This document shows, one piece after another, positions 7,352-26,200 of a stretch of DNA of 32,000 bases. The notes beneath the pieces were generated by a model. It worked only from the letters and a program-made list of their open reading frames with translations, ran no database searches and was not told where the DNA came from. The translations under genes were made by a program, and so were the position numbers. Position 1 is the first letter of the stretch. Each line of letters opens with the position of its first letter. This DNA is from Ruminococcus albus 7 = DSM 20455 (GTDB taxonomy: Bacteria > Bacillota > Clostridia > Oscillospirales > Ruminococcaceae), in NCBI RefSeq assembly GCF_000179635.2, contig NC_014833.1, positions 1,290,001-1,322,000 of the forward strand, read 5' to 3'.

Positions 7352-7447
7352 ATGAAAACAAAAGGTATCATGATGCTGATCGGTTCGGTGCTGATGAATA
7401 TAACAGGCAGACTGATCATCAACGCAGTAAAGAAGAAGGTGAGATGA
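7352..7447 (+). CDS. Possible 31-aa hydrophobic peptide, translationally coupled to the exonuclease gene
   Basis: AAAGGAGG lies 7 nt upstream of the ATG. Sequence is MKTKGIMMLIGSVLMNITGRLIINAVKKKVR. Its stop overlaps the next ATG (ATGA at 7444-7447). Confidence 0.4.
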   Translation: MKTKGIMMLIGSVLMNITGRLIINAVKKKVR

Positions 7448-8397: not shown

Positions 8398-8930
8398 ATA
8401 AACTGAGCATAAGACTTCTTCGTGCCGATGAGATCGAATGCCGTATAGGTACTATAAGCGATAAAGGACTGTCCCTGCTGCTTTACAAAGACGCTCGTGC
8501 AGATATGAAGATACTGGACGAGACCTTCGGTGTGCTGGGCTGGAAAAGATCTCACCAGAGTATAAACGGAAATCTCTACTGTACCATAGAACTATGGGAC
8601 GAGGACAAAAAGCAGTGGATATCCAAACAGGACGTTGGTACAGAAAGCTATACCGAAAAGGAAAAAGGTCAGGCATCGGATAGCTTCAAAAGAGCCTGCT
8701 TTACTCTAGGCATAGGACGAGAATTGTATTCTGCACCTCATGTATGGGTGTCAGCGCAGAAATGCCGAATCCAGAGGCGCGGAGATAAGTTCGTCTGCTT
8801 TGATAAATTCTCTGTCGGACATATCGTGTACAACGATGACCGCGAGATAATCGGGCTCACGATAATCAATTCCGATACAGGTGAAGTGGTCTATAACGGC
8901 TACAAGAGATCACAGAAGAAAACAGCGTGA
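8394..8930 (+). CDS. Rad52/Sak-like single-strand annealing protein
   Basis: ATGA overlap with the exonuclease gene. Contains LDETFGVLGWKRS...KGQASDSFKRACFTLGIGRELY, which matches the Rad52_22-type signature. Confidence 0.8.
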   Translation: MNKLSIRLLRADEIECRIGTISDKGLSLLLYKDARADMKILDETFGVLGWKRSHQSINGNLYCTIELWDEDKKQWISKQDVGTESYTEKEKGQASDSFKRACFTLGIGRELYSAPHVWVSAQKCRIQRRGDKFVCFDKFSVGHIVYNDDREIIGLTIINSDTGEVVYNGYKRSQKKTA

Positions 8931-8935
8931 GTTAT

Positions 8936-8967
8936 GCCCCTTGGCGATGATCGTCAAGGGGCTTTTT
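8936..8967 (+). terminator. Hairpin plus T-run immediately before the amidoligase SD (terminator/attenuator)
   Basis: Stem GCCCCTTG/CAAGGGGC followed by TTTTT. The SD GGAGGAA of the next gene begins 7 nt later. Confidence 0.55.
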
Positions 8968-8985
8968 GTATTTGGAGGAACTTTT

Positions 8986-10104
8986 ATGAATGAGATCTAT
9001 GAGTGTGCAAACTGCGGATGCACCATTGAAAATGAGGAAGAACTTTATGAAGTTGAAGATGAGATAATATGTGAGGACTGCTTCAACGATGAAACATTTA
9101 CCTGCAGTCACTGCGGAGAAAGATATTTCTACCGGAATTCTGTATCCGATGAAAATACAGCGATCTGCCAGAACTGCTATGATAACTACTACCGCCGCTG
9201 TGAACGCTGCGGGTGTATCATCCACGATGATAATGTGTACTGGGACGGTGATTATCCTTATTGCAGTGACTGCTACGATGAAGAAGAACAGTGCAGGCAT
9301 ATACATGATTACGGATACAAGCCTGTGCCTATATTCTACAGATGCAGTGACGAAGATGAAAATGTCCGCTGTTACGGCGTTGAACTTGAAATTGACAGGG
9401 GAGGGAAGGACGATGACAACGCAGATACCCTTGAAAGCATAGCAAACAGGGAAGAAGAGATCCTGTACATAAAATCGGACGGTTCTCTTGACGAGGGTAT
9501 GGAGCTTGTAAGTCATCCCTGTTCTCTTTACTACCATAAATATGACTTCCCCTGGGCTGAGATAATGAAAAGAGCAGTGCGTCTTGGTTACAGGTCACAT
9601 AACACAAGCACCTGCGGACTTCATGTACATATAGGCAGGTCAGCCCTTGGAAACACATACGAACGTCAGGAAGATGTCATAAGCAGGATATTGTTCTTCT
9701 TTGAAAGTCACTGGAACGAGCTGTTCAGATTCAGCAGACGTTCCGAAGAATCAGCCGAACACTGGGCGGCAAGACACGGATATGAAGACCACCCGAAGGA
9801 GATACTTGAAAAAGCCAAGAAGAGCAGCAAGGGCAGATATGCCTGCGTGAACATAACCAACATCAGCACAGTGGAGATAAGGCTGTTCAGAGGTACGCTG
9901 AAGTGGAATACCTTTATGGCATCTCTTGAACTTGTGGACGCTATATGCGAGAATGCGATACGCCATAGTGATGAAGAACTGCATAAGCAGTCATGGGCGG
10001 ATTTTGTGATGAATATAAACAATGAAAATACTGAACTGATAAAGTACCTGAAAGAGAAAAGGCTCTATGTGAACGAGCCTGTTGAAACAGAGGAGGATAA
10101 TTGA
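8986..10104 (+). CDS. Amidoligase_2-family (glutamine-synthetase-fold COOH-NH2 ligase) with an N-terminal triple CxxC Zn-ribbon region
   Basis: ATG at 8986 after GGAGGAA. The N-terminus has three CxxC...CxxC units (CANC..CEDC, CSHC..CQNC, CERC..CSDC). The core contains YGVELEIDRGG, GLHVHIG and EIRLFRGTL. Confidence 0.8.
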   Translation: MNEIYECANCGCTIENEEELYEVEDEIICEDCFNDETFTCSHCGERYFYRNSVSDENTAICQNCYDNYYRRCERCGCIIHDDNVYWDGDYPYCSDCYDEEEQCRHIHDYGYKPVPIFYRCSDEDENVRCYGVELEIDRGGKDDDNADTLESIANREEEILYIKSDGSLDEGMELVSHPCSLYYHKYDFPWAEIMKRAVRLGYRSHNTSTCGLHVHIGRSALGNTYERQEDVISRILFFFESHWNELFRFSRRSEESAEHWAARHGYEDHPKEILEKAKKSSKGRYACVNITNISTVEIRLFRGTLKWNTFMASLELVDAICENAIRHSDEELHKQSWADFVMNINNENTELIKYLKEKRLYVNEPVETEEDN

Positions 10105-10105
10105 T

Positions 10106-11074
10106 ATGTGCGCTATATTTGGATTTGTGAACTACCGTCATGCAGTAAGCGGAAGGCATCTGAAAGAGTTGGTGAACAGGCTGGCAGTTGAATCGGAAGT
10201 AAGGGGAACGGATGCAACGGGAATAGCTTACATCAAAGAAAATGAGCTGAAAGTATACAAGAGACCGAAGCCTGCCCACAAGATGAGGTTCTATTTCCCC
10301 GAAGATACTACCATACTCACAGGTCACACCAGAATGACCACACAGGGCAATGCGAAATACAATTACAACAATCACCCCTTCACAGGACACACTGCGGAGG
10401 GTGATTTTGCGCTCTGTCACAATGGAGTTTTATTCAATGACGATATTCTTCAGAAGGATGAAGATCTGCCGAAGACACAGATAAAGACAGACACCTATGC
10501 GGCTGTACAGCTGATCGAAAAATACGGCAGTTTAAGCTTTGAGACTATTGCTAAGATGTGCGAGACAGTTAAAGGTAATTTCGTGTTCACCATTCTTAAT
10601 GAGGACAATACGCTATATCTGGCAAAGGGAGATAATCCTCTTTGCATTGTACATTTCAAGCAGCTGGGGCTGTATGTGTATACCTCTACCAGAAAGATAA
10701 TGGAGGAAGTGATAATGAACACATTCCTGAAAATATACAAGTTCGATTTTGTAACGTCAGAGGAAGGAGATATTATCCGCATAGACAAGAACGGCGTACT
10801 GACAAGGAGCAAATTTGAATTTGAGGACTATTTTGCACTTGAACGTCATTGGAATCATGCATCATACGGTCATCACTCTGATTATCTTTACGAGCTTTGC
10901 AATCTGTTCGGGCTGACGGTGGATGATATATCTCTGCTGTATGAAATGGGTTACTGCGATGAGGATATAGAGATGATGCTTGATGACAGGGAATATCTCA
11001 ATATGTGTCTAGAAGAGGCTAAGGAATACTACGGAGACTGGCTTATGGAAGAAAGCTATGGTGTTAAGGTTTAG
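10106..11074 (+). CDS. Class-II (Ntn) glutamine amidotransferase-like protein
   Basis: ATG at 10106 after GAGGAGG. The protein begins MCAIFGFV (catalytic Cys2), followed by RGTDATGIAY, GHTRMTTQG and CHNG. Confidence 0.85.
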   Translation: MCAIFGFVNYRHAVSGRHLKELVNRLAVESEVRGTDATGIAYIKENELKVYKRPKPAHKMRFYFPEDTTILTGHTRMTTQGNAKYNYNNHPFTGHTAEGDFALCHNGVLFNDDILQKDEDLPKTQIKTDTYAAVQLIEKYGSLSFETIAKMCETVKGNFVFTILNEDNTLYLAKGDNPLCIVHFKQLGLYVYTSTRKIMEEVIMNTFLKIYKFDFVTSEEGDIIRIDKNGVLTRSKFEFEDYFALERHWNHASYGHHSDYLYELCNLFGLTVDDISLLYEMGYCDEDIEMMLDDREYLNMCLEEAKEYYGDWLMEESYGVKV

Positions 11075-11951: not shown

Positions 11952-12893
11952 TTACTGTTGAATCAGCTGATTCAGTAGTTCTTTGAATAAAATTCTCTTT
12001 TCTTCATTTTTTAAGACATTGTGTTCAATTTCTGAGCAAAACTTTTTATATGCTTCTGTATAATTCGAAAAGGGTTGAATGTTGTATTTATTGAAAAAAA
12101 TTGAATAATCAGGATGTTCCTCTAATACATATGCCGCAATAAGGTTCAATTGAGGCATTCCGGACTCAAGAAGATTAAAAATATGCTTGATTTTTTCTTT
12201 TCCTATTATTTTCAAAAGTTTATATATAAGGTTACTCTGGAAGGTAGTATCACACATTGAGATTTCTTCTGAAAATGCATCATATATAGGGTTCATATTC
12301 AATTCTTGATTAAAGCTATGCTGTATGTTTTTTTTGAAAATTGATTCTATATCAGCTATAGAATTGATTTTGGAAAGATTAAAGCCTCGTTGCTTATATC
12401 TTGAATCTTCATGTGTGATCTTGGATTTAATGTAGTTCTTAACAGCCTGGAATGCATAATTATCTGATTTTTTTAGAAGATAACGATATGCATCCATAAC
12501 ACCAATCATTTCGGCCTCTATTTCATATGGTAAATATTTATAATTATTATCATAAAACTTTTTATTATTTTGAGAAGCTAAAAGACTAATTGCTATTTGG
12601 GGTTTTGCTGTACCTTCTTTTATATCGTAAAACTGTTTAACATGATGAAATTCATGAAAAATAGCAATGAGCGCAGCCACATAAACAGATTTATCATTTT
12701 CAAATTCAAGTTCAAGCGGATGTAAATAGATATCGACGTAGCGTTTTATTTTTTTGTTTTTATCTGGAATTTGAGTGGTAGTTTTACCTGGGATAAAAAA
12801 TTTTTTGAATATGTGCATTCTGAATTTGAATTCTGTATTCTTAGATAGTTTTCTGCCTAATATCAAAAGTTCTATATATTGCAGACAATTCAT
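11952..12893 (-). CDS. AT-rich hypothetical protein with an HExxH metallopeptidase-like motif
   Basis: 313 aa. Contains AALIAIFHEFHHVKQF (HEFHH) and a downstream acidic segment, PYEIEAEM. It has its own consensus promoter. Confidence 0.55.
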   Translation of the reverse strand: MNCLQYIELLILGRKLSKNTEFKFRMHIFKKFFIPGKTTTQIPDKNKKIKRYVDIYLHPLELEFENDKSVYVAALIAIFHEFHHVKQFYDIKEGTAKPQIAISLLASQNNKKFYDNNYKYLPYEIEAEMIGVMDAYRYLLKKSDNYAFQAVKNYIKSKITHEDSRYKQRGFNLSKINSIADIESIFKKNIQHSFNQELNMNPIYDAFSEEISMCDTTFQSNLIYKLLKIIGKEKIKHIFNLLESGMPQLNLIAAYVLEEHPDYSIFFNKYNIQPFSNYTEAYKKFCSEIEHNVLKNEEKRILFKELLNQLIQQ

Positions 12894-12992: not shown

Positions 12993-13450
12993 TGAAAAAA
13001 AGCGTGGCAGAGGAACTAAAAAGTTAAGATAATCGTAGCTTTATCAAAGAATGCAGCAGAAATTCCAAAGAACATGAAAATGAACGATGTGCCGAATTTA
13101 AACGGTATTACGGTGGGAAGATTTGCCTGGGATAATATCTGCGCTGGTACTATGATTGAGAGCGATAATGCTCGAAGCTACAAGAAGCCGCTGGCACAGA
13201 AATACTTCCATGTTTTTGAAACATATGATCCGACAAGCGGTCAGCTGAACTGGATGCATAAAGTTATATCAAACTTCAAAGCAATGATTGTGGGGACTTA
13301 CCACGGAAGCGAAAAGTTCCACACAGCGTTGTATTTTGCCGAATACTGCTATAAATTCAACCGCCGTAAGCTTGGAAACAGTGCGTATTTAAGGCTTTTG
13401 GCTGCTTTGGTTCAGTGATCTTACTTGTGGTGTGTTAAGGGGATAGCCAT
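12993..13450 (+). pseudogene. 5'-truncated, diverged IS1595-family copy (transposase C-terminal remnant plus right IR)
   Basis: Homology to the 3910-4931 element starts near 12993 (AAAAAGCGTGGCAGAGGAACT...), with in-frame stops before ORF 13074..13418 (NARSYKKPLAQKYFHVFETYDPTSGQLNWMHKVISNFKAM...). It ends in the IR TGTGGTGTGTTAAGGGGATAGCCAT (13427-13450). No left end is present. Confidence 0.85.
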
Positions 13451-13617: not shown

Positions 13618-14337
13618 TCAGATCTTATCTATTTTATTCAATGCTTTAATTACTATTTCAGGTATCTCGGCAGGTGGCTCAAATCTTTTATAAACATAGG
13701 CTATGTCAGACAACGCGCCTTCAAGATCATGCAGTTTTGCTTTCAGAAAACCTCTCACCCAGTAGTAAGAATACGGAAAGCAATGTTCATTTTCATCTTC
13801 AGCGATTATCCTTGTACATTCTCCGATTATATTCTCCGGTGTTTTTACCCTTTCAAACCAATCAAGCATAAAAGGAATATTTCTTCTGACAACCGCTTTG
13901 ATCTTCTCAATATTTTCAGGCGTATCGTTGCCATATGCCTGAATGAAATACTTCTCTCTGAAAGCATGATGTTCTTCAATACTGTATGCGTCGGGGTTGC
14001 CGAAGTTATATCCGATATATGGCAAAGGAGAACCTCTATGATCTATTTTTACCGCCTTTTCAGTGCGGTGGTATACAAGTTTACCTGTTGTGTTCCAAGG
14101 CTTATAGTTGACCCCCAAAAAGCAGCTTTCCCAAGGAATAAAATCAAAATTGTATCCCCAATACAATGGACCACGAGGGCCTTTCAAGGGATAAAACATG
14201 ACCACTTTACGGCAATGATCCTCCCATGGAGTGAACCAGAAATGTCCTTTTTCGCAGACTTTCACATCAAATTCTTCTTTAAGAACCTCACAAATAATAT
14301 TATCCAGATTTGGTATCAGATTTAAATAGGTTTCCAT
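13618..14337 (-). CDS. Hypothetical protein
   Basis: 239-aa ORF with GGAGGGAAA-type SD (14342-14349, minus). It has its own promoter and terminator. No family recognised. Confidence 0.6.
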   Translation of the reverse strand: METYLNLIPNLDNIICEVLKEEFDVKVCEKGHFWFTPWEDHCRKVVMFYPLKGPRGPLYWGYNFDFIPWESCFLGVNYKPWNTTGKLVYHRTEKAVKIDHRGSPLPYIGYNFGNPDAYSIEEHHAFREKYFIQAYGNDTPENIEKIKAVVRRNIPFMLDWFERVKTPENIIGECTRIIAEDENEHCFPYSYYWVRGFLKAKLHDLEGALSDIAYVYKRFEPPAEIPEIVIKALNKIDKI

Positions 14338-14426: not shown

Positions 14427-14805
14427 TCTTTTTTCTGAGAGAGACAACCGCTGAAGCCAATGATATTATTAGATTTTTTACGGATAACCGCGGTTTAATC
14501 TAGTGTGATAATGCGGTTTGTATTCTGAGGAGTTTTAATTGTCACTTGCCGCTGCATTAACCACACTTTCTTATCTACAAAATGCACATCTATTTTAGAT
14601 CACATTCATTGGTCCGATAGATCATGATATCGCCCTGTGGGTTTTCGGGAATTGGAATACCTCCCAATGAAATTCTGCACTATCGAAATTTGTTAGATTT
14701 ATGAATTACAGCCATATGAATCGTATCAGCGATTTTTTCATAAAGCGCAGCATGGAACTTTTGGCAGTTATGGTTATCAATAAGGCTAATGTCAGGAAAA
14801 ATATA

Positions 14806-14834
14806 TTGACTTTGCACAATTTGCGTGATATAAT
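14806..14834 (+). promoter_or_regulatory. Promoter of cas3
   Basis: TTGACT (14806-14811), a 17-nt spacer, then TATAAT (14829-14834), with TG at 14826-14827. It lies about 185 nt upstream of the cas3 ATG. Confidence 0.55.
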
Positions 14835-15018
14835 ATGCTTAACAATTATATTCTTGTCTAAACAAAGTTTAAATATATTTACACGAACCGGTTACTGTAC
14901 AAATTTATTCCCCACAAATCCGATAACATATGATATAATAATATAGAAACACATAACACTTCAAGACGTCAGCTAGATAAGAAAACAAATATCAATAACT
15001 ATTATTTGGAGGGAAGTC

Positions 15019-17367
15019 ATGTATACTGCACATATCAGAGAAAATGACAAAGTGATACAAACTGTATCGGAGCACAGCCAAAATACTGCTTTACTAGCAG
15101 AACGATTTTTGACATCTTCAAATATAGGATCAGTTGGTTATCTTTGCGGGCTTCTTCATGATGCCGGAAAACTCTTAAAAGATTTCGACGACTACATAAA
15201 TAAAAGAAACAAAATGACACGCGGCAGTATTGACCATGCTTATGCCGGTGCGAAGTATCTTATATCAATTGCAAGCAAAGATAAAGCAAATATTGCAGCT
15301 ATAAGCATGGCACATACCATTGTTTCTCACCACGGTATACATGACTGGATAGACAATGACAACTACGATTATTTCAGCAAACGTATCTCATATGATAAAG
15401 GATATGATGAGATACTCAATAATCTGAATGAAATCATAGGCGATATAAATATAAATGACCTGTTTGAAAAAGCGACAAAAGAATGGTTTGATGTTGCAAA
15501 AATGATTCGTGGTTTTTCTAAAACAAAAGAAGAAAAAGAAGAAAAAATAGATAATACCAAGTTTTACTTCTATCTTGGAATGCTGGAACGTCTCATACAA
15601 TCAGCACTGATCGACGCAGACAGAACAGATACCGCTGATTTTATGTCCGGTGTGGAAAGTGCGGAAGAAACCGACACTTCTCTTTTATGGGAACAAATGG
15701 ATAGTCGTATGAACGAAAAGCTGAAAAGTTTTGAGAATAAAACCGATGCTATTTCATTGCAGCGAAGAAGTATATCCGACAGATGTGCTGCATTTGCTGA
15801 CCATAAAGTTGGTGTCTGTCGACTTATCGTTCCTACAGGCGGCGGAAAAACACTTTCATCATTAAGATTTGCAATAAAGCAATGTAAAAACTACGGAATG
15901 AAAAAGATCTTCTATATTGCCCCGTTCATGTCGATACTTGAACAGAACAGTGATATCATAGGTGAACTTTCAGGAGAAGAAGATTTTCTGGAACATCATT
16001 CAAACATCATATCGGATATAGATAATGAAAATGAGCTGGAAAAATATCTGCTATATTCGGAACGCTGGACAAAGCCAGTTATTGCAACAACTATGGTACA
16101 GTTTCTGAACACGTTATTTTCAGCAAAAACTTCATCCGTCAGAAGAATGCACTGTCTTTGCAATTCGGTAATAATCATCGATGAAGTACAGTCTGTGCCG
16201 CTGAAATGTACTCACCTTTTCAGTCTAGCTGTAAATTTTCTGACAAAGATATGCGGTTGTTCCGTTGTACTTTGTTCGGCAACTCAGCCGACATTTGAGA
16301 GAAACGAACACAGTCTGATGCGTGATGAACGTGCAGATATGATAGAAAATTATGCAGAGGATTTTGAAGTATTTAAGAGAACCGAAATGATACCCGCCAT
16401 GCAAAAATACGGCTACGACATAGAAGAAGCGACGCTTTTATGCGAGCAAAAGTTTGAAGAAAACGGCAATCTTCTGCTTATAGTTAACACAAAAAAACAG
16501 GCACGGGAAATGTACACGCGCTTAAAGGACAAGCTGGGAGAAAAAGCACATATCATACACCTCAGCACTAATATGTGCCCTGCCCACCGAAAAGAAAGTA
16601 TAGATGATCTGAAAGAAAAGCTTGAACATGGAGTTCCTGTTGTATGTGTTACCACTCAGCTTATCGAGGCGGGTGTTGATATTTCTTTCAGCTGTGTTGT
16701 AAGGGCTTTGGCAGGACTCGATAATGCCGCACAGGCAGCAGGACGATGCAACAGAAATGGTGAGAAAGGAAGGATATGTCCTGTATATCTGATAAACTTC
16801 AAGAACGAACCTCTTGGAAATCTCACAGAGATCAAAACAGCGCAGGACATTTCACAACACGTTATCCGAAACAATGAGAATGCCGATCTGCTTTCGGTAG
16901 ATATTCAAAGCAGTTATTTTGAACAACTGTTTTCACAAAATAAAGAAAAGCTGGACTATCCTGCTAATGGCACAACACTCCTTGAACTTCTGTCAACAAA
17001 CAAGGGTAAAGCCGAAGCACATGACCTTAAACCTGATATGCTTTTGCAGGCATTCAAAACAGCAGGTAATATATTTGAAGTGATAGACAGTCACACCGAG
17101 AACGTGATAGTGCCTTATAATGATGAAGCAGAGTCGTTTATCAGCAGACTGAATGATGACCTTACCCCGCAAGAAGCAGCTGAGATACTTCGCAAAGCAC
17201 AGAAATACACTGTCAGCGTTTATATGGGAACAAAAAAGGCGTTGGAAGAAAAAGGTGCGATACACATAACCAAGAATAATAATATTATCGTACTTGATAA
17301 GAGATTTTATAACAGCGAATTCGGAATTACTACCGAGGGCGCTGAACGGGAAACATTGATGTATTGA
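15019..17367 (+). CDS. cas3: Cas3 HD-nuclease/helicase (type I)
   Basis: 782 aa. N-terminal HD motifs (LLHDAGK, IDHAYAG, VSHHG). Helicase motifs PTGGGKT and IIIDEVQS. Gene order matches type I-C. SD GGAGGGAAG. Confidence 0.95.
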   Translation: MYTAHIRENDKVIQTVSEHSQNTALLAERFLTSSNIGSVGYLCGLLHDAGKLLKDFDDYINKRNKMTRGSIDHAYAGAKYLISIASKDKANIAAISMAHTIVSHHGIHDWIDNDNYDYFSKRISYDKGYDEILNNLNEIIGDININDLFEKATKEWFDVAKMIRGFSKTKEEKEEKIDNTKFYFYLGMLERLIQSALIDADRTDTADFMSGVESAEETDTSLLWEQMDSRMNEKLKSFENKTDAISLQRRSISDRCAAFADHKVGVCRLIVPTGGGKTLSSLRFAIKQCKNYGMKKIFYIAPFMSILEQNSDIIGELSGEEDFLEHHSNIISDIDNENELEKYLLYSERWTKPVIATTMVQFLNTLFSAKTSSVRRMHCLCNSVIIIDEVQSVPLKCTHLFSLAVNFLTKICGCSVVLCSATQPTFERNEHSLMRDERADMIENYAEDFEVFKRTEMIPAMQKYGYDIEEATLLCEQKFEENGNLLLIVNTKKQAREMYTRLKDKLGEKAHIIHLSTNMCPAHRKESIDDLKEKLEHGVPVVCVTTQLIEAGVDISFSCVVRALAGLDNAAQAAGRCNRNGEKGRICPVYLINFKNEPLGNLTEIKTAQDISQHVIRNNENADLLSVDIQSSYFEQLFSQNKEKLDYPANGTTLLELLSTNKGKAEAHDLKPDMLLQAFKTAGNIFEVIDSHTENVIVPYNDEAESFISRLNDDLTPQEAAEILRKAQKYTVSVYMGTKKALEEKGAIHITKNNNIIVLDKRFYNSEFGITTEGAERETLMY

Positions 17368-17469
17368 TAAAAAACAATGCACCGCATAGGAAGAGACCCT
17401 ATGCGGTGCGTTGAGACAATTAATGTAATTGATCTAATTTCAATCCACGCTAGTTTGTTTACTAACGAC
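17368..17469 (-). ncRNA. Predicted crRNA-like regulatory RNA: degenerate repeat, pseudo-spacer and terminator hairpin (CreR/CreA-like)
   Basis: Minus strand 17469->17437 reads GTCGTTAGTAAACAAACTAGCGTGGATTGAAAT. The last 12 nt are identical to the array repeat, and a stem is retained at repeat positions 3-22. The pseudo-spacer TAGATCAATTACATTAATTG... follows. The 12-bp hairpin at 17379-17409 has its T6 run only on the minus strand. See findings. Confidence 0.5.
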
Positions 17470-17475
17470 TTGATT

Positions 17476-17484
17476 ATTATATCA
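17476..17484 (-). promoter_or_regulatory. Extended -10 promoter for the crRNA-like RNA
   Basis: The minus strand reads TGATATAAT. The predicted start is about 6-8 nt downstream, at the first bases of the degenerate repeat. Confidence 0.4.
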
Positions 17485-17534
17485 CATCAATAACACCAAA
17501 TGTGTAAATAAAATATTAATTTCACAATACGCTC

Positions 17535-17563
17535 TTGACAAATCGAATATCATCGTTTATAAT
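17535..17563 (+). promoter_or_regulatory. Promoter of cas5c-cas8c-cas7c-cas4-cas1-cas2
   Basis: Perfect TTGACA (17535-17540), a 17-nt spacer, then TATAAT (17558-17563). Confidence 0.6.
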
Positions 17564-17600
17564 TTATCTAGAATGAATTTTTAATATAATTTATCTAGAA
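17558..17600. promoter_or_regulatory. Tandem 16-bp direct repeat TATAATTTATCTAGAA x2; candidate Cascade or repressor operator sites
   Basis: Identical 16-mers at 17558-17573 and 17585-17600. On the minus strand each reads TTC-TAGATAAATTATA, that is, I-C PAM plus a seed match to the pseudo-spacer. Confidence 0.55.
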
Positions 17601-17620
17601 ATAAAAAAGGAGGTCGAGTG

Positions 17621-18370
17621 ATGAAAAAACACCGCAACACAGTAGAATTTTATGTTCATGGGAAATATGCACTTTTTTCCGATGTGCTGACCAGAGTAGG
17701 AGGCGAGAAATGCTCCTATACGATTCCCACCTATGAAGCCCTGAAAGGCATCCTGCAAAGTGTATATTTCAAGCCGACGATAACATGGTTCATTGACGAG
17801 GTGCGTATAATGAATCCCATCAAAACAGTGCGCAAGGGCATTCGTCCGATAAAGTATGACGGCGGAAACGATCTTGCATATTATACTTATCTAGAAGATG
17901 TCTGCTATCAGGTCAGAGCACACTTTGAGTGGAACATGAATCGTCCCGAACTTGAACAGGACAGGAACGAACACAAACACCACAACATTGCCAAACGAAT
18001 GATAGAACGCGGCGGTAGACGCGACATTTTTTTAGGGACCAGAGAGTGTCAAGCCTACGTTGAACCCTGCGTTTTCGGCGAAGGTGAGGGCGCTTATGAT
18101 AATGTCAGCATGGACATGGCATTCATGTACTACGGCATAATATATCCCGATGAAGCCGAAAAGGAAGAGGACAAGGGCTATATGACAGTATGTCTGTGGC
18201 AGCCGAAAATGAAAGACGGTATCATAGAATTTGTCCGCCCTTCCGAAATAGCCCCCGAACACAAACGGCATATCAAGAAGATGGAAATGAAGAAGTTTGG
18301 CAAAGAGCTGGATAATTTCACCGGACTTGAAGAATTTGAGGGAGGTGAGTTCGATGAGCTGGACGAATGA
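17621..18370 (+). CDS. cas5c: Cas5c (Cas5d) pre-crRNA endoribonuclease/Cascade subunit
   Basis: ATG at 17621, 6 nt after AAGGAGG. The track's start at 17618 is a GTG. The sequence NTVEFYVHGKYALFSD...PTYEALKGILQSVYFKP is typical of Cas5, I-C subtype. Confidence 0.9.
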   Translation: MKKHRNTVEFYVHGKYALFSDVLTRVGGEKCSYTIPTYEALKGILQSVYFKPTITWFIDEVRIMNPIKTVRKGIRPIKYDGGNDLAYYTYLEDVCYQVRAHFEWNMNRPELEQDRNEHKHHNIAKRMIERGGRRDIFLGTRECQAYVEPCVFGEGEGAYDNVSMDMAFMYYGIIYPDEAEKEEDKGYMTVCLWQPKMKDGIIEFVRPSEIAPEHKRHIKKMEMKKFGKELDNFTGLEEFEGGEFDELDE

Positions 18371-20195
18371 GTTGCTAGAAGTCTATAATAATGCAGTGAA
18401 GATAAAAGCTGAACCCAACAAACCAAAACTATTGCCAATTTCTCACACAATGGTCAAGGCTAATATCCATATTACGCTCACCGAGGACGGAGAATTGGAT
18501 AATACAGGAATTAAAGAGATTACTTCAGAAGATGATGAAAATACTATAATTCCTGATACAGGAAAAGCCAAGACCGGTATATATCCACCGCCTTATCCGC
18601 TAAATGAATCCTTGCGTTATCTGGCAGGAGATTTCAATGAATATATTTCAGATAATATTAAAAGTAATGAGCGAAATCATCAAGATTACATTGAACAGCT
18701 GAAGGATTGGAAGGATTCGGAATATTCACACCCTGCGCTAAATGCGATATACACCTATATTACAAAGAACACTTTGATATATGATTGTATTTGCAACAAT
18801 GTTTTGCTGCTCGATGATAAAACAGGAAAGCTGAAAGAAAAACAACTTGGCGTTAGCGTGGATAAATGCTTTGTCAGATTTTCTGTTCAATATGCAGATA
18901 TGCAGCATGAACCGAGAACATGGAAAGATGAAACATTATATAATTCTTTTATTGATTACCTCAATAGCAATGCCGTTGAAAAACGTCTTTGTTATGCGAC
19001 AGGTGATTATTTGCCAATAACATACACACACCCTTATGGTATCGTTAAGAGCAACGCTCGTGCAAAGCTGATATCCTCAAATGACGACAAAAACTATACT
19101 TATCGTGGGCGTTTTTCTACTAAAGAAGAAGCTTTCGCTGTAAGCTATGACTATTCTCAGAAAGTACACAACGCACTCAAATGGCTTATCGGAAGACAAA
19201 GTTTTTCTTTTGATTCACTTACGCTCGTTGTCTGGAACAGCGCCCTTGACTTTGTGCCAAACATCACGGAAAATGTCTGGGGTGATGTTGAAATTGAAGA
19301 ATACAGCTCAAAACCTATATTTTCAGAAATGCTGCGCAAAAACATCTTGGGCGGCAAGGCGGAATTTGACCCCAATAGCAAGGTCATGGTAATGGGACTT
19401 GACGCGGCAACTACAGGCAGACTTTCGATATCAATGTATACCGAACTGGCAGAATCTGAATTTGCTAAATATTTAGAATTTTGGCACACCTCAACAGCAT
19501 GGAAAAGAAAGAAATATATCAAAGATAAATATGAGTATATTTTGGATTCCTGCAGCTTACCGCAGATCGCAAACTGCCTTTACGGAACCGAACAGAACGG
19601 ACGCCTGGAATGTGACAAGAAAGTATTGGGCGACACCATACTTCGACTGCTGCCCTGTGTTACTGAACGCCGAAAGCTGCCGCGGGATATAGTTCAAACC
19701 ATATGCAATAAAGCATCGAACCCGCTTGCATTTGATAAAGAATACAACCACATGATGATCGTTGAAAATGCCTGTGCGCTGATACGCAAGGAATATTCAG
19801 ACTATAATAAAGGAGAGATAAAAATGGCATACGACCCCACTTGTACCGACAGAAGCTATCTTTTCGGATGCCTGCTGGCTATTGCAGATAAGGCTGAAAG
19901 AGACACCTATGAAAAAGACGAGAAACGCATCACCAATGCCAGAAGATACTGGAACGCATTTTCATCAAGACCGTATCAGACATGGCAGATAATAGAAGAA
20001 AAAATCGAACCGTATCTTGAGAAAGATCCCCGGCTGATGACGAAATACACCAAACACATCAATGATATAATGGCGAAAATGTCTCCCGACACCTTTAAGG
20101 ATAACAGCAAACTCTCGCCTTTGTATCTCATAGGCTTTCATCACTATAACACACTGCTTTGGAAAGGCAGCGAAGATAATAACAAGGAGGAATAA
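18354..20195 (+). CDS. cas8c: Cas8c (Csd1) large subunit
   Basis: The preferred start is the ATG at 18354 (MSWTNELLEVYNN...) after GGAGG. About 613 aa, and positioned between cas5c and cas7c. Confidence 0.9.
   Translation: MSWTNELLEVYNNAVKIKAEPNKPKLLPISHTMVKANIHITLTEDGELDNTGIKEITSEDDENTIIPDTGKAKTGIYPPPYPLNESLRYLAGDFNEYISDNIKSNERNHQDYIEQLKDWKDSEYSHPALNAIYTYITKNTLIYDCICNNVLLLDDKTGKLKEKQLGVSVDKCFVRFSVQYADMQHEPRTWKDETLYNSFIDYLNSNAVEKRLCYATGDYLPITYTHPYGIVKSNARAKLISSNDDKNYTYRGRFSTKEEAFAVSYDYSQKVHNALKWLIGRQSFSFDSLTLVVWNSALDFVPNITENVWGDVEIEEYSSKPIFSEMLRKNILGGKAEFDPNSKVMVMGLDAATTGRLSISMYTELAESEFAKYLEFWHTSTAWKRKKYIKDKYEYILDSCSLPQIANCLYGTEQNGRLECDKKVLGDTILRLLPCVTERRKLPRDIVQTICNKASNPLAFDKEYNHMMIVENACALIRKEYSDYNKGEIKMAYDPTCTDRSYLFGCLLAIADKAERDTYEKDEKRITNARRYWNAFSSRPYQTWQIIEEKIEPYLEKDPRLMTKYTKHINDIMAKMSPDTFKDNSKLSPLYLIGFHHYNTLLWKGSEDNNKEE
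19824..20195 (+). CDS. cas11c: Candidate internally translated Cas11c small subunit (in frame within cas8c)
   Basis: In-frame ATG at 19824, preceded by AAAGGAGAG (19809-19817). It would give a 123-aa product, MAYDPTCTDRSYLFGCLLAIADKAE... Confidence 0.45.
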   Translation: MAYDPTCTDRSYLFGCLLAIADKAERDTYEKDEKRITNARRYWNAFSSRPYQTWQIIEEKIEPYLEKDPRLMTKYTKHINDIMAKMSPDTFKDNSKLSPLYLIGFHHYNTLLWKGSEDNNKEE

Positions 20196-20198
20196 AAA

Positions 20199-21056
20199 AT
20201 GGCTGTACTTCAGAACAAGATAGATTTTTCGGTAATACTGACTGCTAAGAATGCAAATCCCAACGGTGACCCTCTCAATGGCAACCGCCCCAGAGAAAAC
20301 TATGACGGTTTCGGCGAGATAAGCGATGTATGCATAAAGAGAAAGATACGCAACCGTTTGCAGGATATGGGCGAAAAGATATTCGTGCAGTCGGATGACA
20401 GGTGCGGAGATGGATTCAAGAGCCTGCATGACAGAGCTAAGGGATGCGAAACTCTTGCTGCACTGAGCAAGGCAAAGAATACTGACCGCGATGAATACGC
20501 AAAGGCAGCCTGTGCTGAATGGATAGATGTCCGCAGTTTCGGGCAGGTGTTCGCATTCAAGGGCGACTCTGTTTCTGTCGGAGTTCGCGGTCCTGTATCC
20601 ATTCAGATGGCTGAAAGCATCTCGCCTGTGGATATAGTAAGTATGCAGATAACCAAAAGTGTCAACGGCGAAAGCGGAAAAGAAAGCAAAGCATCAGACA
20701 CAATGGGCTCAAAGCACCGAGTTGACTTCGGTCTGTACGTTTTCCACGGCAGCATAAATGTTCAGCTTGCCGAAAAGACAGGCTTTACCGAAGAAGATGC
20801 CGAAAAAATACATGAAGCACTTGAAACACTGTTTGAAAACGACTGTTCCTCTGCAAGACCCGAGGGAAGTATGGAAGTTAGACGAGTTTACTGGTACAAA
20901 CATGAATGCAAGACCCCTACGAACTCCTCAGCAAAAGTACATCGTCTGCTGAAAGTGACACTTAGGGACGGCATTGACAGACCAAAATGTTTTGAAGATT
21001 ATGATATAACTCTTGATAAGCTGGAGGGACTTGACCCTGAGATATTCGAGGGCTGA
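20199..21056 (+). CDS. cas7c: Cas7c (Csd2) backbone subunit
   Basis: 285 aa. Contains NANPNGDPLNGNRPR...DVCIKRKIRN, typical of Cas7 in I-C. SD AAGGAGGAA. Confidence 0.92.
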   Translation: MAVLQNKIDFSVILTAKNANPNGDPLNGNRPRENYDGFGEISDVCIKRKIRNRLQDMGEKIFVQSDDRCGDGFKSLHDRAKGCETLAALSKAKNTDRDEYAKAACAEWIDVRSFGQVFAFKGDSVSVGVRGPVSIQMAESISPVDIVSMQITKSVNGESGKESKASDTMGSKHRVDFGLYVFHGSINVQLAEKTGFTEEDAEKIHEALETLFENDCSSARPEGSMEVRRVYWYKHECKTPTNSSAKVHRLLKVTLRDGIDRPKCFEDYDITLDKLEGLDPEIFEG

Positions 21057-21057
21057 T

Positions 21058-21717
21058 ATGTATAGCGAAGACGAATACCTGATGCTCTCGGGGATACAGC
21101 ATTTCGTGTTTTGCAGAAGACAGTGGGCACTGATACATATCGAGCAGCAGTGGGAAGAAAACTACCGCACAGCTGACGGTCAGGTCATGCACAGAAATGT
21201 GCATGATGCTGATTTCCATGAAAAACGCGGCAATACGATCATCACAAGAGCTATGGCGGTGTCATCATCAAAACTTGGTATAAGCGGTGAATGTGATGTT
21301 GTAGAATTTCATGGCTGCAAAAACGGTATAGGGCTTTTCGGCGTAGAAGGCAGATATGAAGTCATACCAATTGAATACAAAAGAGGTTCTCCTAAAGAGA
21401 ACGACAGTGATATTATGCAGCTGGCAGCACAGGCTATGTGTCTTGAAGAGATGCTTTGCTGTACTATAGATACAGGCTATCTCTATTATGGTGAAACACA
21501 CAGACGTACAAAGGTAATTATAGATGCTGAACTTCGTGAACGTACTGAAAAAGCCATCGAAGAGATGCATGAACTATACCGAAAAAAGTATACTCCAAAA
21601 GTCAAACGTACAAAAGCCTGCAATGCCTGTTCGCTTAAAAATATCTGTCTGCCTGTGCTATGCTCTAAGAAAAGCGCAGCAGACTATATAAAAGATATGC
21701 TGGGAAAGGAGGAATGA
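21058..21717 (+). CDS. cas4: Cas4 (RecB-like nuclease with a C-terminal Fe-S Cys cluster)
   Basis: ATG at 21058 (MYSEDEYLMLSGIQHFVFCRRQWALIHIE...). Contains IEYKRG and a C-terminal CNACSLKNICLP. The track's start at 21013 is a TTG inside cas7c. Confidence 0.9.
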   Translation: MYSEDEYLMLSGIQHFVFCRRQWALIHIEQQWEENYRTADGQVMHRNVHDADFHEKRGNTIITRAMAVSSSKLGISGECDVVEFHGCKNGIGLFGVEGRYEVIPIEYKRGSPKENDSDIMQLAAQAMCLEEMLCCTIDTGYLYYGETHRRTKVIIDAELRERTEKAIEEMHELYRKKYTPKVKRTKACNACSLKNICLPVLCSKKSAADYIKDMLGKEE

Positions 21718-21718
21718 A

Positions 21719-22750
21719 ATGAGAAAACTGCTTAATACACTTTACATAACTTCTCCTGACAGATATCTTTCTCTTGATGGAGAAAATGTCGTGGTACAAG
21801 CTGATGGCAAGGAGATAGGAAGAGTACCGCTCCATAATCTTGAACGGATAATGACATTCGGATATACCGGCGCAAGCCCTGCGCTCATGGGTAAATGTGC
21901 TGCTAATGGAATCGAACTGATCTTTATGAGCGGGAGCGGAAAATTTCTTGCGAGGGTCGAGGGCGAGGTAAATGGAAACGTGCTGTTAAGGAGACAGCAG
22001 TACAGGTACGCTGATGAATCAAAAGTAAGTCTCGATATATCCAAAAACATAATTTGCGCCAAACTTTTCAACAGCCGATGGACTATCGAGCGCACGCTCA
22101 GAGATCACCCGATGCGTATAGATGCCGATAAATTCGATAACTGCTCACAGCAACTGAAAAAGTCGATAGATAATGCACGAAAAGCAGACGATATCGACAC
22201 CCTTAGAGGTATCGAAGGTGAAGCAGCACAGATATATTTTTCAGTATTTGATGATATGATATTGCAGCAAAAGGACGACTTTTCATTTAAGACCAGAAAT
22301 AAACGTCCGCCAAAAGATACTGTGAATGCTCTTCTTTCATTTGCATACTCGCTTGCTACAAGTATGTGTACATCTGCATTGGAAGCAGTTGGACTTGACC
22401 CTTACGTGGGTTTTATGCACACTGACCGTCCCGGAAGAAGATCGTTGGCTCTCGACTTAGTGGAGGAGATGCGATCGCCGCTGTGCGACAGATTTGTTCT
22501 GACTGTTATAAACAAAAAGATCATATCTGCTCACGATCTTGAAAAGCGTGAAGATGGCGCCGTGATCCTTACAGATAACGGAAGACGTGCGTTTATCACA
22601 GCCTGGCAGAAACGAAAAGACGATGAGCTGAAACACCCTTTTCTTGATGAAAAGATAGAATGGGGAACGGTTCCATACGCCCAGGCGCTTCTGCTGGCAA
22701 GATATATAAGAGGCGATCTCGACGCTTATCCTCCTTTTATGTGGAAGTGA
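21719..22750 (+). CDS. cas1: Cas1 integrase
   Basis: 343 aa. Contains LYITSPDRYLSLDGENVVV... and LDPYVGFMHTDRPGRRSLALDLVEEMR. Confidence 0.95.
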   Translation: MRKLLNTLYITSPDRYLSLDGENVVVQADGKEIGRVPLHNLERIMTFGYTGASPALMGKCAANGIELIFMSGSGKFLARVEGEVNGNVLLRRQQYRYADESKVSLDISKNIICAKLFNSRWTIERTLRDHPMRIDADKFDNCSQQLKKSIDNARKADDIDTLRGIEGEAAQIYFSVFDDMILQQKDDFSFKTRNKRPPKDTVNALLSFAYSLATSMCTSALEAVGLDPYVGFMHTDRPGRRSLALDLVEEMRSPLCDRFVLTVINKKIISAHDLEKREDGAVILTDNGRRAFITAWQKRKDDELKHPFLDEKIEWGTVPYAQALLLARYIRGDLDAYPPFMWK

Positions 22751-22754
22751 TATT

Positions 22755-23045
22755 ATGCTGGTATTGATAACTTATGATGTCAGCACGGCAGACAATGCAG
22801 GAAAAAAACGCCTGCGTCGTGTTGCAAAACAATGTGTAAACTACGGAGTGCGAGTTCAGAATTCGGTTTTTGAATGTGAACTTGACCCTGCACAATGCAG
22901 ACTTCTGAAACAAAAGCTAACTGAAGAAATAGATGAAACAAAAGATAGTTTGCGCTTCTACTATCTTGGCAATATCAAAAAAGCCAAGGTGGAACACGTC
23001 GGTTCAAAACAGACACTCAAAGTCGATGAGCCGCTAATTTTCTGA
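22755..23045 (+). CDS. cas2: Cas2
   Basis: 96 aa. Contains MLVLITYDVSTADNAGKKRLRRVAKQCVNYGVRVQNSVFEC. Confidence 0.95.
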   Translation: MLVLITYDVSTADNAGKKRLRRVAKQCVNYGVRVQNSVFECELDPAQCRLLKQKLTEEIDETKDSLRFYYLGNIKKAKVEHVGSKQTLKVDEPLIF

Positions 23046-23205: not shown

Positions 23206-26200
23206 GTCTCTCCCCACACGGGGAGAGTGGATTGAAATTCGTCACAAGGTAGCAAGACTGCGTGTTGAGAAGTCTCTCCCCACACGGGGAGAGTGGATTG
23301 AAATTAGCATAGCCTTATCATTACAATTAAGTTTGCTAGTCTCTCCCCACACGGGGAGAGTGGATTGAAATTGTCCTGCAAGTATCTGTGCGGTCTGTGC
23401 TGTCTGGTCTCTCCCCACACGGGGAGAGTGGATTGAAATTGTGAGTTGTTGAGCCAAGGGTAGAGGTAATCCAGTCTCTCCCCACACGGGGAGAGTGGAT
23501 TGAAATTGCAGACCAACGTTCTCGCGCTGTGCCTGTGCCAGTCTCTCCCCACACGGGGAGAGTGGATTGAAATCGACCTCTCACATAGCTATCTATGGTA
23601 TCGCATAGTCTCTCCCCACACGGGGAGAGTGGATTGAAATTCGATACACTGCTTGATAATCTTACCGTGTTATGGTCTCTCCCCACACGGGGAGAGTGGA
23701 TTGAAATTGCAGACCAACGTTCTCGCGCTGTGCCTGTGCCAGTCTCTCCCCACACGGGGAGAGTGGATTGAAATTGCCATTCAAGGTCAAAGTATATCGG
23801 ATATTCAGTCTCTCCCCACACGGGGAGAGTGGATTGAAATATAGCGTGTGCCGTTCTGCTTTACCTTATCAACGGGTCTCTCCCCACACGGGGAGAGTGG
23901 ATTGAAATGCAAGGGTGCGGATGATCTTCGTGGGTATCTGATGTCTCTCCCCACACGGGGAGAGTGGATTGAAATGACTGCACAGCCCATAAGTATCTCG
24001 GGGCAGTGAACGTCTCTCCCCACACGGGGAGAGTGGATTGAAATTGCGGCTTTGGTGCGCACCTAGAAAAAGGTGAAGGGTCTCTCCCCACACGGGGAGA
24101 GTGGATTGAAATAACGCTGTGATGATCTGCAGGATAACGCGGAAGTCGTCTCTCCCCACACGGGGAGAGTGGATTGAAATAGCGGTAGAATATCGCGGTT
24201 GATAGCCTCGATCGTCTCTCCCCACACGGGGAGAGTGGATTGAAATTATCGTCCAGAAAAACATAGCATAAGCCTGTGGCAGTCTCTCCCCACACGGGGA
24301 GAGTGGATTGAAATTCTCTGCCCTTAGGTTTGCAATAAACGTTTCCCGTCTCTCCCCACACGGGGAGAGTGGATTGAAATAAGATATCCCTGTATCTGAT
24401 TTCCAAAGCTTACAGTCTCTCCCCACACGGGGAGAGTGGATTGAAATTATGCCCTCCCGCTTGGTGTGCTCTATCTTCCGCTTCGTCTCTCCCCACACGG
24501 GGAGAGTGGATTGAAATAGTTATATAATGCTTTGTGCCGTTCTTATCTTCGTCTCTCCCCACACGGGGAGAGTGGATTGAAATCATAGCGTAACAATTGC
24601 CGCTATCAAGCCCGCTATGTCTCTCCCCACACGGGGAGAGTGGATTGAAATAACCTTAGAGAACACGCCACCTTCGCCGAGGATGAGTCTCTCCCCACAC
24701 GGGGAGAGTGGATTGAAATGTTAACAACAAGCACCGTTTTATCGTACTCAGGGTCTCTCCCCACACGGGGAGAGTGGATTGAAATGTGATACAAATCAAC
24801 CACTTCGGAGGCGGTTATCGGTCTCTCCCCACACGGGGAGAGTGGATTGAAATTGTGTCTGACAGGTTGCGAGCCTGTTGTCACAGCAGGTCTCTCCCCA
24901 CACGGGGAGAGTGGATTGAAATTTGTACGGTACCACATACGCGAAACCAAGTGTCTGTCTCTCCCCACACGGGGAGAGTGGATTGAAATTTGAAGTGAAC
25001 ATTTTTGAATAAATCGCGTTTGTAGTCTCTCCCCACACGGGGAGAGTGGATTGAAATAATTTCGTAGTGCTATCAGCGCAATAACTGTAACGTCTCTCCC
25101 CACACGGGGAGAGTGGATTGAAATTTGCATGAGTTTAAGAGGGAGCAAAAATAAATGACAGTCTCTCCCCACACGGGGAGAGTGGATTGAAATTCCGTAG
25201 AAAACATTGTAAAAATTTCGGGCGTGGCGTCTCTCCCCACACGGGGAGAGTGGATTGAAATCGCTTGCGCCTGTGCAAGTGCGTTTTGTGCCTTTTGTCT
25301 CTCCCCACACGGGGAGAGTGGATTGAAATAGCTAATGCTATATCGTAAGTTTGAGCCAACACTGTCTCTCCCCACACGGGGAGAGTGGATTGAAATACAA
25401 CGGTGTGTTTGTTTTTCCCCCGAATTTGATAGTCTCTCCCCACACGGGGAGAGTGGATTGAAATACTAGCAATATGACAACGGAAGAAACCGTAAACCGT
25501 CTCTCCCCACACGGGGAGAGTGGATTGAAATTGTTTACATACGCATTATATCACATATTTGCCCGGTCTCTCCCCACACGGGGAGAGTGGATTGAAATTC
25601 TTAACGCGTCCATTTCTTCCGCTGTCGCGCCCGTCTCTCCCCACACGGGGAGAGTGGATTGAAATTATCGTGTACGATATTTTCCGTATCGGAAATCTTG
25701 TCTCTCTCCACACGGGGAGAGTGGATTGAAATACTTAACGCGGCTTGATACTGTTCGGGTGTCAAGTCTCTCCCCACACGGGGAGAGTGGATTGAAATGA
25801 CCGTCCAATTATTTTCTTTCATAGCCTTTTCGTCTCTCCCCACACGGGGAGAGTGGATTGAAATGATAACCCACAAACTTTTAATATATCTATAATTTGT
25901 CTCTCCCCACACGGGGAGAGTGGATTGAAATACGTTCACACCCCCACAAATGAATTTTTGTAGTGTCTCTCCCCACACGGGGAGAGTGGATTGAAATTGT
26001 GTTCACGCCCGCTTTTTCCATTTGTGCAATTAGTCTCTCCCCACACGGGGAGAGTGGATTGAAATGTATGATTGCACATAAAACGTGTGGAAAAATTGTT
26101 GTCTCTCCCCACACGGGGAGAGTGGATTGAAATGTCCACGCGGTTGTGAATGTGGTTTTAAACCACGTGTCTCTCCCCACACGGGGAGAGTGGATTGAAA

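Follow-up and report, generated by a model that had tools for sequence, protein, structure and literature searches.

A candidate crRNA-like RNA gene between cas3 and cas5c in the type I-C CRISPR locus of Ruminococcus albus 7, with PAM-flanked partial matches at the promoter of its own Cascade operon

The type I-C CRISPR-Cas locus considered here lies on the plus strand of a 32 kb stretch of the Ruminococcus albus 7 (ATCC 27210 / DSM 20455) chromosome (the window, whose positions serve as coordinates throughout), and the element at issue is a small unit on the opposite strand, between cas3 and cas5c, with the build of a gene for a CRISPR RNA (crRNA)-like RNA, or crlRNA. The system is complete, all NCBIfam type I-C models scoring above their cut-offs: cas3 is followed, after the intergenic region that holds the unit, by the genes from cas5c to cas2 and then by the array (Table 1). 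The Cas5c and Cas3 of the window are identical to ADU21655.1 and ADU21654.1, respectively. An exact-sequence look-up with Cas5c returned only near-identical copies of this same locus, and since their intergenic region is identical as well, the look-up carries no micro-evolutionary information.

Read on the minus strand, the unit opens with an extended -10 element, part of a TGnTATAaT/TATACT block that is kept at constant distance in nine homologous units (alignment A1), and the predicted transcription start (about 17469-17471) falls on the first bases of what follows, a 33-nt degenerate copy of the array repeat, here termed the pseudo-repeat. The two agree at 19 of 33 positions, and their likeness is concentrated where it would be expected to count. 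The 11-nt 5' handle lies within the 12-mer GTGGATTGAAAT, of which the array has 63 exact copies and a 64th, terminal one with a single mismatch; outside the array the window holds one exact copy, on the minus strand at 17448-17437 within the pseudo-repeat, where shuffled sequences give an expectation of about 0.3 matches even with one mismatch allowed. The middle of the pseudo-repeat differs from that of the array repeat, yet a stem is kept, with seven predicted base pairs (17467-17461 with 17454-17448), the last of which abuts the handle at the predicted Cas5c cut point.

Next comes a 27-nt segment in the position of a spacer (the pseudo-spacer) and then a hairpin with a T-run, which a terminator scan scored on the minus strand only and which is the predicted intrinsic terminator and probably also the 3'-end structure of the RNA. 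The fold of the 108-nt RNA has a predicted free energy of -37.3 kcal/mol (z-score -6.3). An earlier, sequence-only reading of this stretch had described the handle-retaining degenerate repeat with its stem, the extended -10 upstream and the antisense terminator, and each of these was recovered, the sequences that it quoted all being where it had placed them. That reading had also pointed to a resemblance between the hairpin and the 5' end of the repeat (13 of 18 positions); the likeness is real in the window sequence and absent in the homologues, so that a vestigial second repeat, and with it a two-repeat mini-array, was rejected, the element being a conserved hairpin-terminator. A scan of 17000-18000 on both strands against Rfam, with E values up to 10, gave nothing near any gathering score.

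The pseudo-spacer has two sites flanked by TTC, the presumptive protospacer-adjacent motif (PAM), at a consensus-strength promoter that runs into the ribosome-binding site and start of cas5c within about 45 nt. The two are copies of TATAATTTATCTAGAA, the distal one being a duplicate offset by 27 bp. The distal site lies in the 5' untranslated region (UTR), about 10-30 nt past the predicted cas5c transcription start. Once positions 6 and 12 are set aside, its agreement with the pseudo-spacer is complete (15 of 15). The proximal site matches at positions 1-5, 7-11 and 13 only (11 of 15, that is, a seed match); its positions 8-13 are the -10 hexamer, and it also covers the predicted transcription start. 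The sequence-only reading had proposed both as promoter sites matched by the pseudo-spacer, which stands for the distal site over its full 17 nt bar positions 6 and 12 and holds for the proximal one in part. The proximal site would seem to be the ancestral one, decayed at positions 14-17, with the full 17-nt match now in the duplicate 27 bp downstream. The 32 kb window holds no further target sites for the pseudo-spacer, and cas3 is not targeted.

Table 1. Features of the locus by window position (minus-strand features are given in their direction of reading)
Feature	Positions	Strand	Sequence	Basis or remark
cas3 (HD nuclease and helicase)	15019-17367	+		NCBIfam; upstream of the module
239-bp module (holding the crlRNA gene, the internal promoter and the two targets)	17363-17601			either wholly there or wholly missing in close relatives
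Candidate crRNA-like RNA gene (whole unit: extended -10, degenerate repeat, pseudo-spacer, hairpin and T6)	17484-17369	-
Extended -10 of the unit's promoter	17484-17476	-	TGATATAAT	sequence and alignment of nine homologues
Pseudo-repeat, 33 nt	17469-17437	-	GTCGTTAGTAAACAAACTAGCG followed by TGGATTGAAAT	19/33 identical to the array repeat, direct count
11-nt 5' handle within the pseudo-repeat	17447-17437	-	UGGAUUGAAAU
Pseudo-spacer, 27 nt	17436-17410	-	TAGATCAATTACATTAATTGTCTCAAC	only the first 17 nt (17436-17420) complementary to the targets
3' hairpin, 13 bp (17409-17379), then ATTG and T6 (17374-17369)	17409-17369	-	hairpin followed by ATTGTTTTTT	terminator scan, fold
Promoter of the cas5c operon, sigma-70 type (TTGACA 17535-17540, 17 nt, TATAAT 17558-17563)	17535-17563	+		12/12 consensus
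Proximal target (PAM TTC 17573-17571, protospacer 17570-17554)	17573-17554	-	TTC + TAGATAAATTATA (17573-17558)
Distal target (PAM TTC 17600-17598, protospacer 17597-17581)	17600-17581	-	TTC + TAGATAAATTATATTAA
cas5c ribosome-binding site (GGAGG 17609-17613) and likely ATG start (17621)	17609-17623	+
Operon under the targeted promoter (cas5c-cas8c-cas7c-cas4-cas1-cas2)	17621-23045	+
cas5c	17621-18370	+		NCBIfam, Cas5c family match
cas8c	18297-20195	+		NCBIfam
cas7c	20199-21056	+		NCBIfam
cas4	21013-21717	+		NCBIfam
cas1	21719-22750	+		NCBIfam
cas2	22755-23045	+		NCBIfam
CRISPR array	23206-27474	+	repeat GTCTCTCCCCACACGGGGAGAGTGGATTGAAAT	64 repeats, 63 spacers

The evidence that carries most weight is comparative. 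Loci fetched from 80 species-level genomes and 80 metagenomes, with Cas5c 62-95% identical to the query, were scanned for solitary antisense copies of the handle, and about a third of the 80 species-level type I-C loci proved to have a solitary antisense repeat unit. The pseudo-spacers vary between loci, and nearly all of these have, at a distance of 70-185 nt and next to promoter-like sequence, a site that matches their own pseudo-spacer and is flanked by TTC or, occasionally, by TTT or CTC. With the window added to the 80 loci there are 33 antisense units; 24 of them have, within about 450 nt, a TTC site that matches their own pseudo-spacer at 13 or more of the 15 non-sixth positions, and in 21 the match is at least 14. 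When pseudo-spacers were paired with foreign neighbourhoods as a control, only three of 930 pairings reached 13 and none reached 14. The metagenome loci contribute additional cases with new pseudo-spacers. That pseudo-spacer and promoter should co-vary in related type I-C loci had been set down beforehand as the check on the initial proposal, and its outcome was positive, with differing pseudo-spacers matching their own cas promoter and the cross-locus pairings failing. Closer to home, the unit of the window and that of loci L082 and L084 are about 80-81% identical, equal to the divergence of their cas genes, and between the window and L082-84 positions 4, 7 and 10 are altered in both the pseudo-spacer and the target, true compensatory double changes.

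Positional agreement over 24 distinct pseudo-spacer/target pairs has a strict period. Positions 1-5 agree in 22-24 of the 24, positions 7-11 in 21-24 and positions 13-17 in 17-24; agreement drops to 7 of 24 at position 6, to 10 at position 12 and to 3 at position 18, past which it is at background level. Selection thus keeps exactly three 5-nt segments, leaves each sixth base free and does not extend past 17 nt. In type I systems every sixth base is flipped out, and the action of Cas3 needs a long R-loop, so that 17 nt would prevent cleavage. The pattern is what would be expected as the footprint of Cascade binding without a complete R-loop. A finer detail is the recurrent mismatch at position 12, with ATTACA in the pseudo-spacer where the promoter has ATTATA; it may itself be under selection, for it would destroy a cryptic -10 in the DNA of the pseudo-spacer at no cost to Cascade binding.

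Conservation of structure is a further strand. Of 32 distinct units, 26 have a stem that ends at the cleavage junction, built from many different sequences (8% in shuffled controls), and in the 3' hairpin of the nine units nearest the window paired cells make up 90%, both sides having changed in 6 of the 10 pairs. Both hairpins are maintained via compensatory changes. As to the PAM, protospacers of the array's real spacers were found on three IMG/VR viral contigs, and their 5' flanks (n=8) are TTC in five cases, TTT in one and other triplets in two; TTC at five of eight viral protospacers makes it a valid PAM for this very system, in keeping with what had been assumed from general knowledge of the subtype.

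The anatomy, the PAM, the co-variation, the six-nucleotide period and the structure conservation are direct observations, and with them the minus-strand unit is very probably a gene of the CreR/crlRNA type, whose RNA would direct the type I-C Cascade to repress its own operon, much as had been proposed from the sequence. The sequence features by which such genes are known are there: a retained handle, a predicted hairpin that ends at the Cas5c cleavage site, a PAM-proximal partial match to a promoter with the system's own PAM, a match that ends after position 17, the promoter of effector cas genes as target, and co-variation of pseudo-spacer and target. In the scheme proposed, transcription from the extended -10 promoter would begin at the pseudo-repeat and yield about 100 nt of RNA, and cutting by Cas5c at the 3' base of the pseudo-repeat hairpin would leave the handle, the 27-nt pseudo-spacer and the 3' hairpin in a mature RNA of some 50-80 nt. 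Cas5c, Cas8c and Cas7c would assemble on this RNA, and the complex would recognize TTC and base-pair with the non-template strand along 17 nt, in three segments of 5 nt. Binding would be strong immediately past the cas5c start, at 17597-17581, and weak across the -10 box, at 17570-17558. Because 17 nt would make too short an R-loop to license Cas3, the complex is proposed to be a repressor or roadblock and not a nuclease. The outcome would be negative feedback on the consensus-strength internal promoter of cas5c-cas2, with cas3 retaining its own upstream promoter, and depletion of free Cascade, by abundant crRNAs or by anti-CRISPR proteins, should relieve the repression. The duplicated operator, with sites at the -10 and in the 5' UTR, could sharpen the feedback.

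Several points weigh against this account. The -35 of the unit's promoter is poor, a TTTACA being 21 nt away from the -10, and the transcription starts at the locus are predicted ones; processing, binding and repression are what we infer from the sequence. The site that covers the -10 is a seed match only (11 of 15) and the full match is in the 5' UTR, which makes the mode of repression (occlusion or roadblock) and its strength uncertain. On the plus strand the hairpin has no T-run, and read-through from cas3 could complicate the picture. Two close relatives (L081 and L002, see below) are without the module, which is hence dispensable.

Among explanations of a different kind, the one that survives best, itself quite unlikely, has the RNA made and loaded into Cascade with its main role elsewhere, either regulating unlinked genes in trans or acting as a decoy that titrates Cascade. 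crRNA-like RNAs that regulate non-cas genes are known (10.1101/2024.12.27.630466), and the genome search here covered 32 kb; however, the window holds no other site, and over 25 independent loci have their best matches in cis, at the cas promoter. Less probable still is that the two copies of the duplicated sequence serve a protein repressor as operators, or represent tandem -10 elements, and have no link to the crRNA-like unit. A 16-bp direct repeat with 27-bp spacing around a promoter does have the look of a classical operator pair, and the duplicate is found in the window only, but a regulator gene is absent from the module, and elsewhere a single site co-varies with its own pseudo-spacer, with TTC always on the correct side. 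An equally slim chance attaches to the unit being the antitoxin half of an addiction module of the CreTA type, the RNA then repressing a small toxin gene and not the cas operon. CreA RNAs share the build and are also found between cas genes (PMC10120712; 10.1101/2024.10.29.618823). Here, though, the targeted promoter leads straight to the start of cas5c, and the open reading frames in the 239-bp module are short, with one of 38 amino acids on the plus strand and, on the minus strand, one of 23 together with the ends of four that overlap the flanks; none in the module is toxin-like (only short reading frames of 20-38 amino acids and the ends of flank-overlapping ones being present). Clean loss of the module in relatives is also unexpected of an addictive element. 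Scarcely credible, finally, is a decayed leftover of a CRISPR repeat with a chance likeness to a promoter in AT-rich DNA: the region is indeed AT-rich, the target holds a generic TATAAT that any AT-rich 17-mer could partly match and the module is missing from close relatives, but the 24 of 33 units that match at their own locus (3 of 930 for foreign pairings), a strict six-nucleotide period of mismatches, the presence of the PAM, two hairpins kept by compensatory changes and conservation of the unit's promoter and terminator speak otherwise, the cross-locus control by itself contradicting this reading. One recent ancestor shared by all the loci is ruled out because the pseudo-spacers differ. 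None of the rivals explains locus-specific co-variation together with the PAM and the six-nucleotide period.

A viral origin for the unit was also considered. Viral RNA anti-CRISPRs (Racr/Cracr) are encoded by phages or plasmids, and this unit sits on the chromosome, within the R. albus 7 cas operon; no phage copy of the handle plus seed was found in IMG/VR, and a megablast of the locus against plasmids gave zero matches.

Returning to CreR-type autorepression as the preferred reading, the loci surveyed have the unit in two architectures. As in the window, the unit is just upstream of cas5c in L004, L009, L010, L012, L022, L028, L044, L082-84, L093 and L095. In the larger group, made up of many Clostridia loci, it is upstream of cas3, with the handle at about 1270-1490 (e.g. 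L018, L021, L035, L039-L042 and L047; also L051, L052, L054, L056-L058, L063, L065, L072, L075 and others), and the coding strand usually carries the protospacer, which overlaps the TTGACA -35 or lies directly upstream of it, an arrangement that would repress the whole cas3-to-cas2 operon. The placement of the target relative to the promoter recurs too: in L012, L016, L022 and L093, as for the proximal site of the window, the -35 corresponds to protospacer positions 31-36 and the -10 to positions 8-13, a geometry at which Cascade would cover the -10 box and the start site. L082-84 have a single site, downstream of the -10 box. A further unit, about 150-200 nt upstream of cas5c in L020, has a mutated handle (GTGGATCGAAAT) and a pseudo-spacer apparently shifted by 2 nt relative to its TTC-flanked target, and may be a decaying copy. 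In most group A units (alignment A1) 26-29 nt separate the handle from the base of the 3' hairpin, as against about 36-37 nt over the corresponding stretch in the real crRNAs of this array; pseudo-spacer length looks constrained, and a shorter Cascade backbone may be involved.

Between close relatives the module behaves as a block. L081, the closest relative (Cas5c 95% identical), is without 17363-17601, and its cas5c directly follows cas3 (L081 2979-2982), with flanks that are 95.6% identical to the window through cas3 and its upstream region and 92.8% from the cas5c ribosome-binding site onward. The module is likewise absent from L002 (Cas5c 90% identical). In R. albus 8 (L001, 3820-3870) an orphan TTC-flanked target like that of L082-84 is left, the promoter and unit being deleted. 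Regulatory mini-arrays have a similarly sporadic distribution (PMC10120712). A 239-bp cassette of promoter plus repressor would uncouple the Cascade and adaptation genes from cas3.

The mechanism itself is already known, and type I-C crRNA-like RNAs are not new. What the locus presents, as read from its sequence, is a putative type I-C CreR of a Firmicute, aimed at the promoter of its own Cascade; its pseudo-repeat is single, its operator duplicated and its distribution that of a cassette. Whether such autorepression is common and modular in the type I-C systems of Clostridia, occurring in about a third of the species-level loci sampled and in two architectures, is a wider proposition that we put forward tentatively and regard as rather doubtful. 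The value of the case is in unusually clean comparative evidence combined with a testable model organism: proposed RNA-guided autorepression in the type I-C system of a cultured rumen bacterium. Natural variation alone indicates that type I-C Cascade binding tolerates mismatch at positions 6, 12 and 18, and the roughly 25-30 co-varying pseudo-spacer/promoter pairs are a possible guide for the design of type I-C CRISPR interference guides that bind without cutting; the same pairs could help to annotate how cas genes are regulated in Firmicutes of the gut and rumen. Such autorepression has been proposed to buffer Cascade levels and to sense anti-CRISPRs, which makes R. albus 7, with the module, and the L081 lineage, with none, a natural comparison.

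Some features of the surroundings are recorded for completeness. Upstream of cas3 the 12-mer TGATATAATAAT, an extended -10, occurs at 14931-14942 (+); the same 12 nt make up the -10 region of the crlRNA promoter (17484-17473, minus strand), which may simply reflect an AT-rich promoter consensus; a second promoter-like site there, TTGACT-17-TATAAT with TG, is at 14806-14834. About 200 bp upstream of these cas3 promoters, at 14591-14613 (+), TAGATCA, the first 7 nt of the pseudo-spacer, follows TTT. As a third target at the cas3 promoter (14594) this was rejected, a 7-nt seed with a TTT flank being at about chance level in 64 kb of strand by a rough estimate, and the match is probably chance. 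Directly upstream of cas3 the reading frames at 11952-12893 and 13618-14337, both on the minus strand and of 313 and 239 amino acids, match nothing in Pfam or NCBIfam. The DNA that precedes the CRISPR locus also has a mobile-element-like stretch, at 7444-11074 and 13074-13418, which encodes a Rad52-like protein, a YqaJ-like exonuclease, an amidoligase_2 protein adjoining a class-II glutamine amidotransferase, and an IS1595-family transposase fragment.

In the array itself, where the real spacers are 33-37 nt long, a 34-nt spacer (TGCAGACCAACGTTCTCGCGCTGTGCCTGTGCCA) is duplicated at 23507-23540 and 23708-23741, three units apart; two internal repeats have one substitution each, and the terminal repeat has G, not T, as its last base. 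The viral contig L164 (IMGVR_UViG_3300021387_001397) is matched by six different R. albus 7 spacers with 0-6 mismatches, and L163 and L165 are matched also; L164 is probably a phage of the R. albus 7 lineage. Its sole protospacer with a perfect match is flanked by TGC in place of TTC, perhaps through an escape mutation in the PAM. A megablast of the whole array against GenBank phages gave zero matches.

A literature search on the CRISPR locus of R. albus 7 brought up nothing specific, supplementary lists of loci being outside its scope, and comparison is with systems in other organisms. CreR autorepression has been demonstrated for types I-B, I-E and V-A, and creA-like elements adjoining the effector promoter in type I-C have been noted by manual inspection only (10.1101/2023.03.10.532045). 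Like those CreR genes (10.1101/2023.03.10.532045), the present one is a degenerate solitary unit in or beside a cas operon, with a PAM-flanked partial match to the effector promoter, no toxin and, as predicted outcome, autorepression without cleavage. Unlike them it belongs to I-C, a subtype without experimental autorepression in the literature found; it has a single pseudo-repeat and a terminator hairpin in place of two pseudo-repeats, and two target sites, one full and one seed-only, in a module that splits cas3 from the Cascade and adaptation genes. The mini-arrays between cas3 and cas8 in types I-E and I-F1 (PMC10120712) share with it an orientation opposite to cas3, a Cascade-promoter target with a canonical PAM, mismatches at positions 6 and 12 and sporadic occurrence among close relatives; they differ in having two repeats and in subtype. 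For I-F1 it was found that Cascade without Cas3 is sufficient for repression, and the same survey gives, for I-C, a repeat-like sequence in 34% of loci and a mini-array in 7%, with no I-C cases described (PMC10120712). With CreTA, the toxin-antitoxin RNA pairs repressed by Cascade, the RNA build and Cascade-guided promoter repression are held in common, but the promoter here has no toxin gene downstream; viral mimics aimed at I-C loci have been catalogued as well (10.1101/2024.10.29.618823).

Very similar are the type I-C crlRNAs between cas3 and cas5c that repress inserted defence genes (Nezha, Gabija and 'CRISIS'), as established by small-RNA sequencing and reporters, with an 11-nt handle, a TTC PAM, a 16-bp match, a mismatch at position 6, a 3' end in the hairpin loop and, for one such RNA together with Cascade, about 21-fold repression of the target (10.1101/2024.12.27.630466). 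In the cas3-upstream group the placement of the protospacer relative to the -35 recalls the published Nezha case. Whereas the published RNAs deal with cargo defence genes, in Neisseria, the R. albus 7 unit is in a Firmicute, cargo is absent and it is the cas5c promoter that is targeted. In subtype and in position within the locus the two are the same, and their features agree almost point by point, the stretch from handle start to hairpin loop in R. albus 7, at about 51-53 nt, being among those compared.

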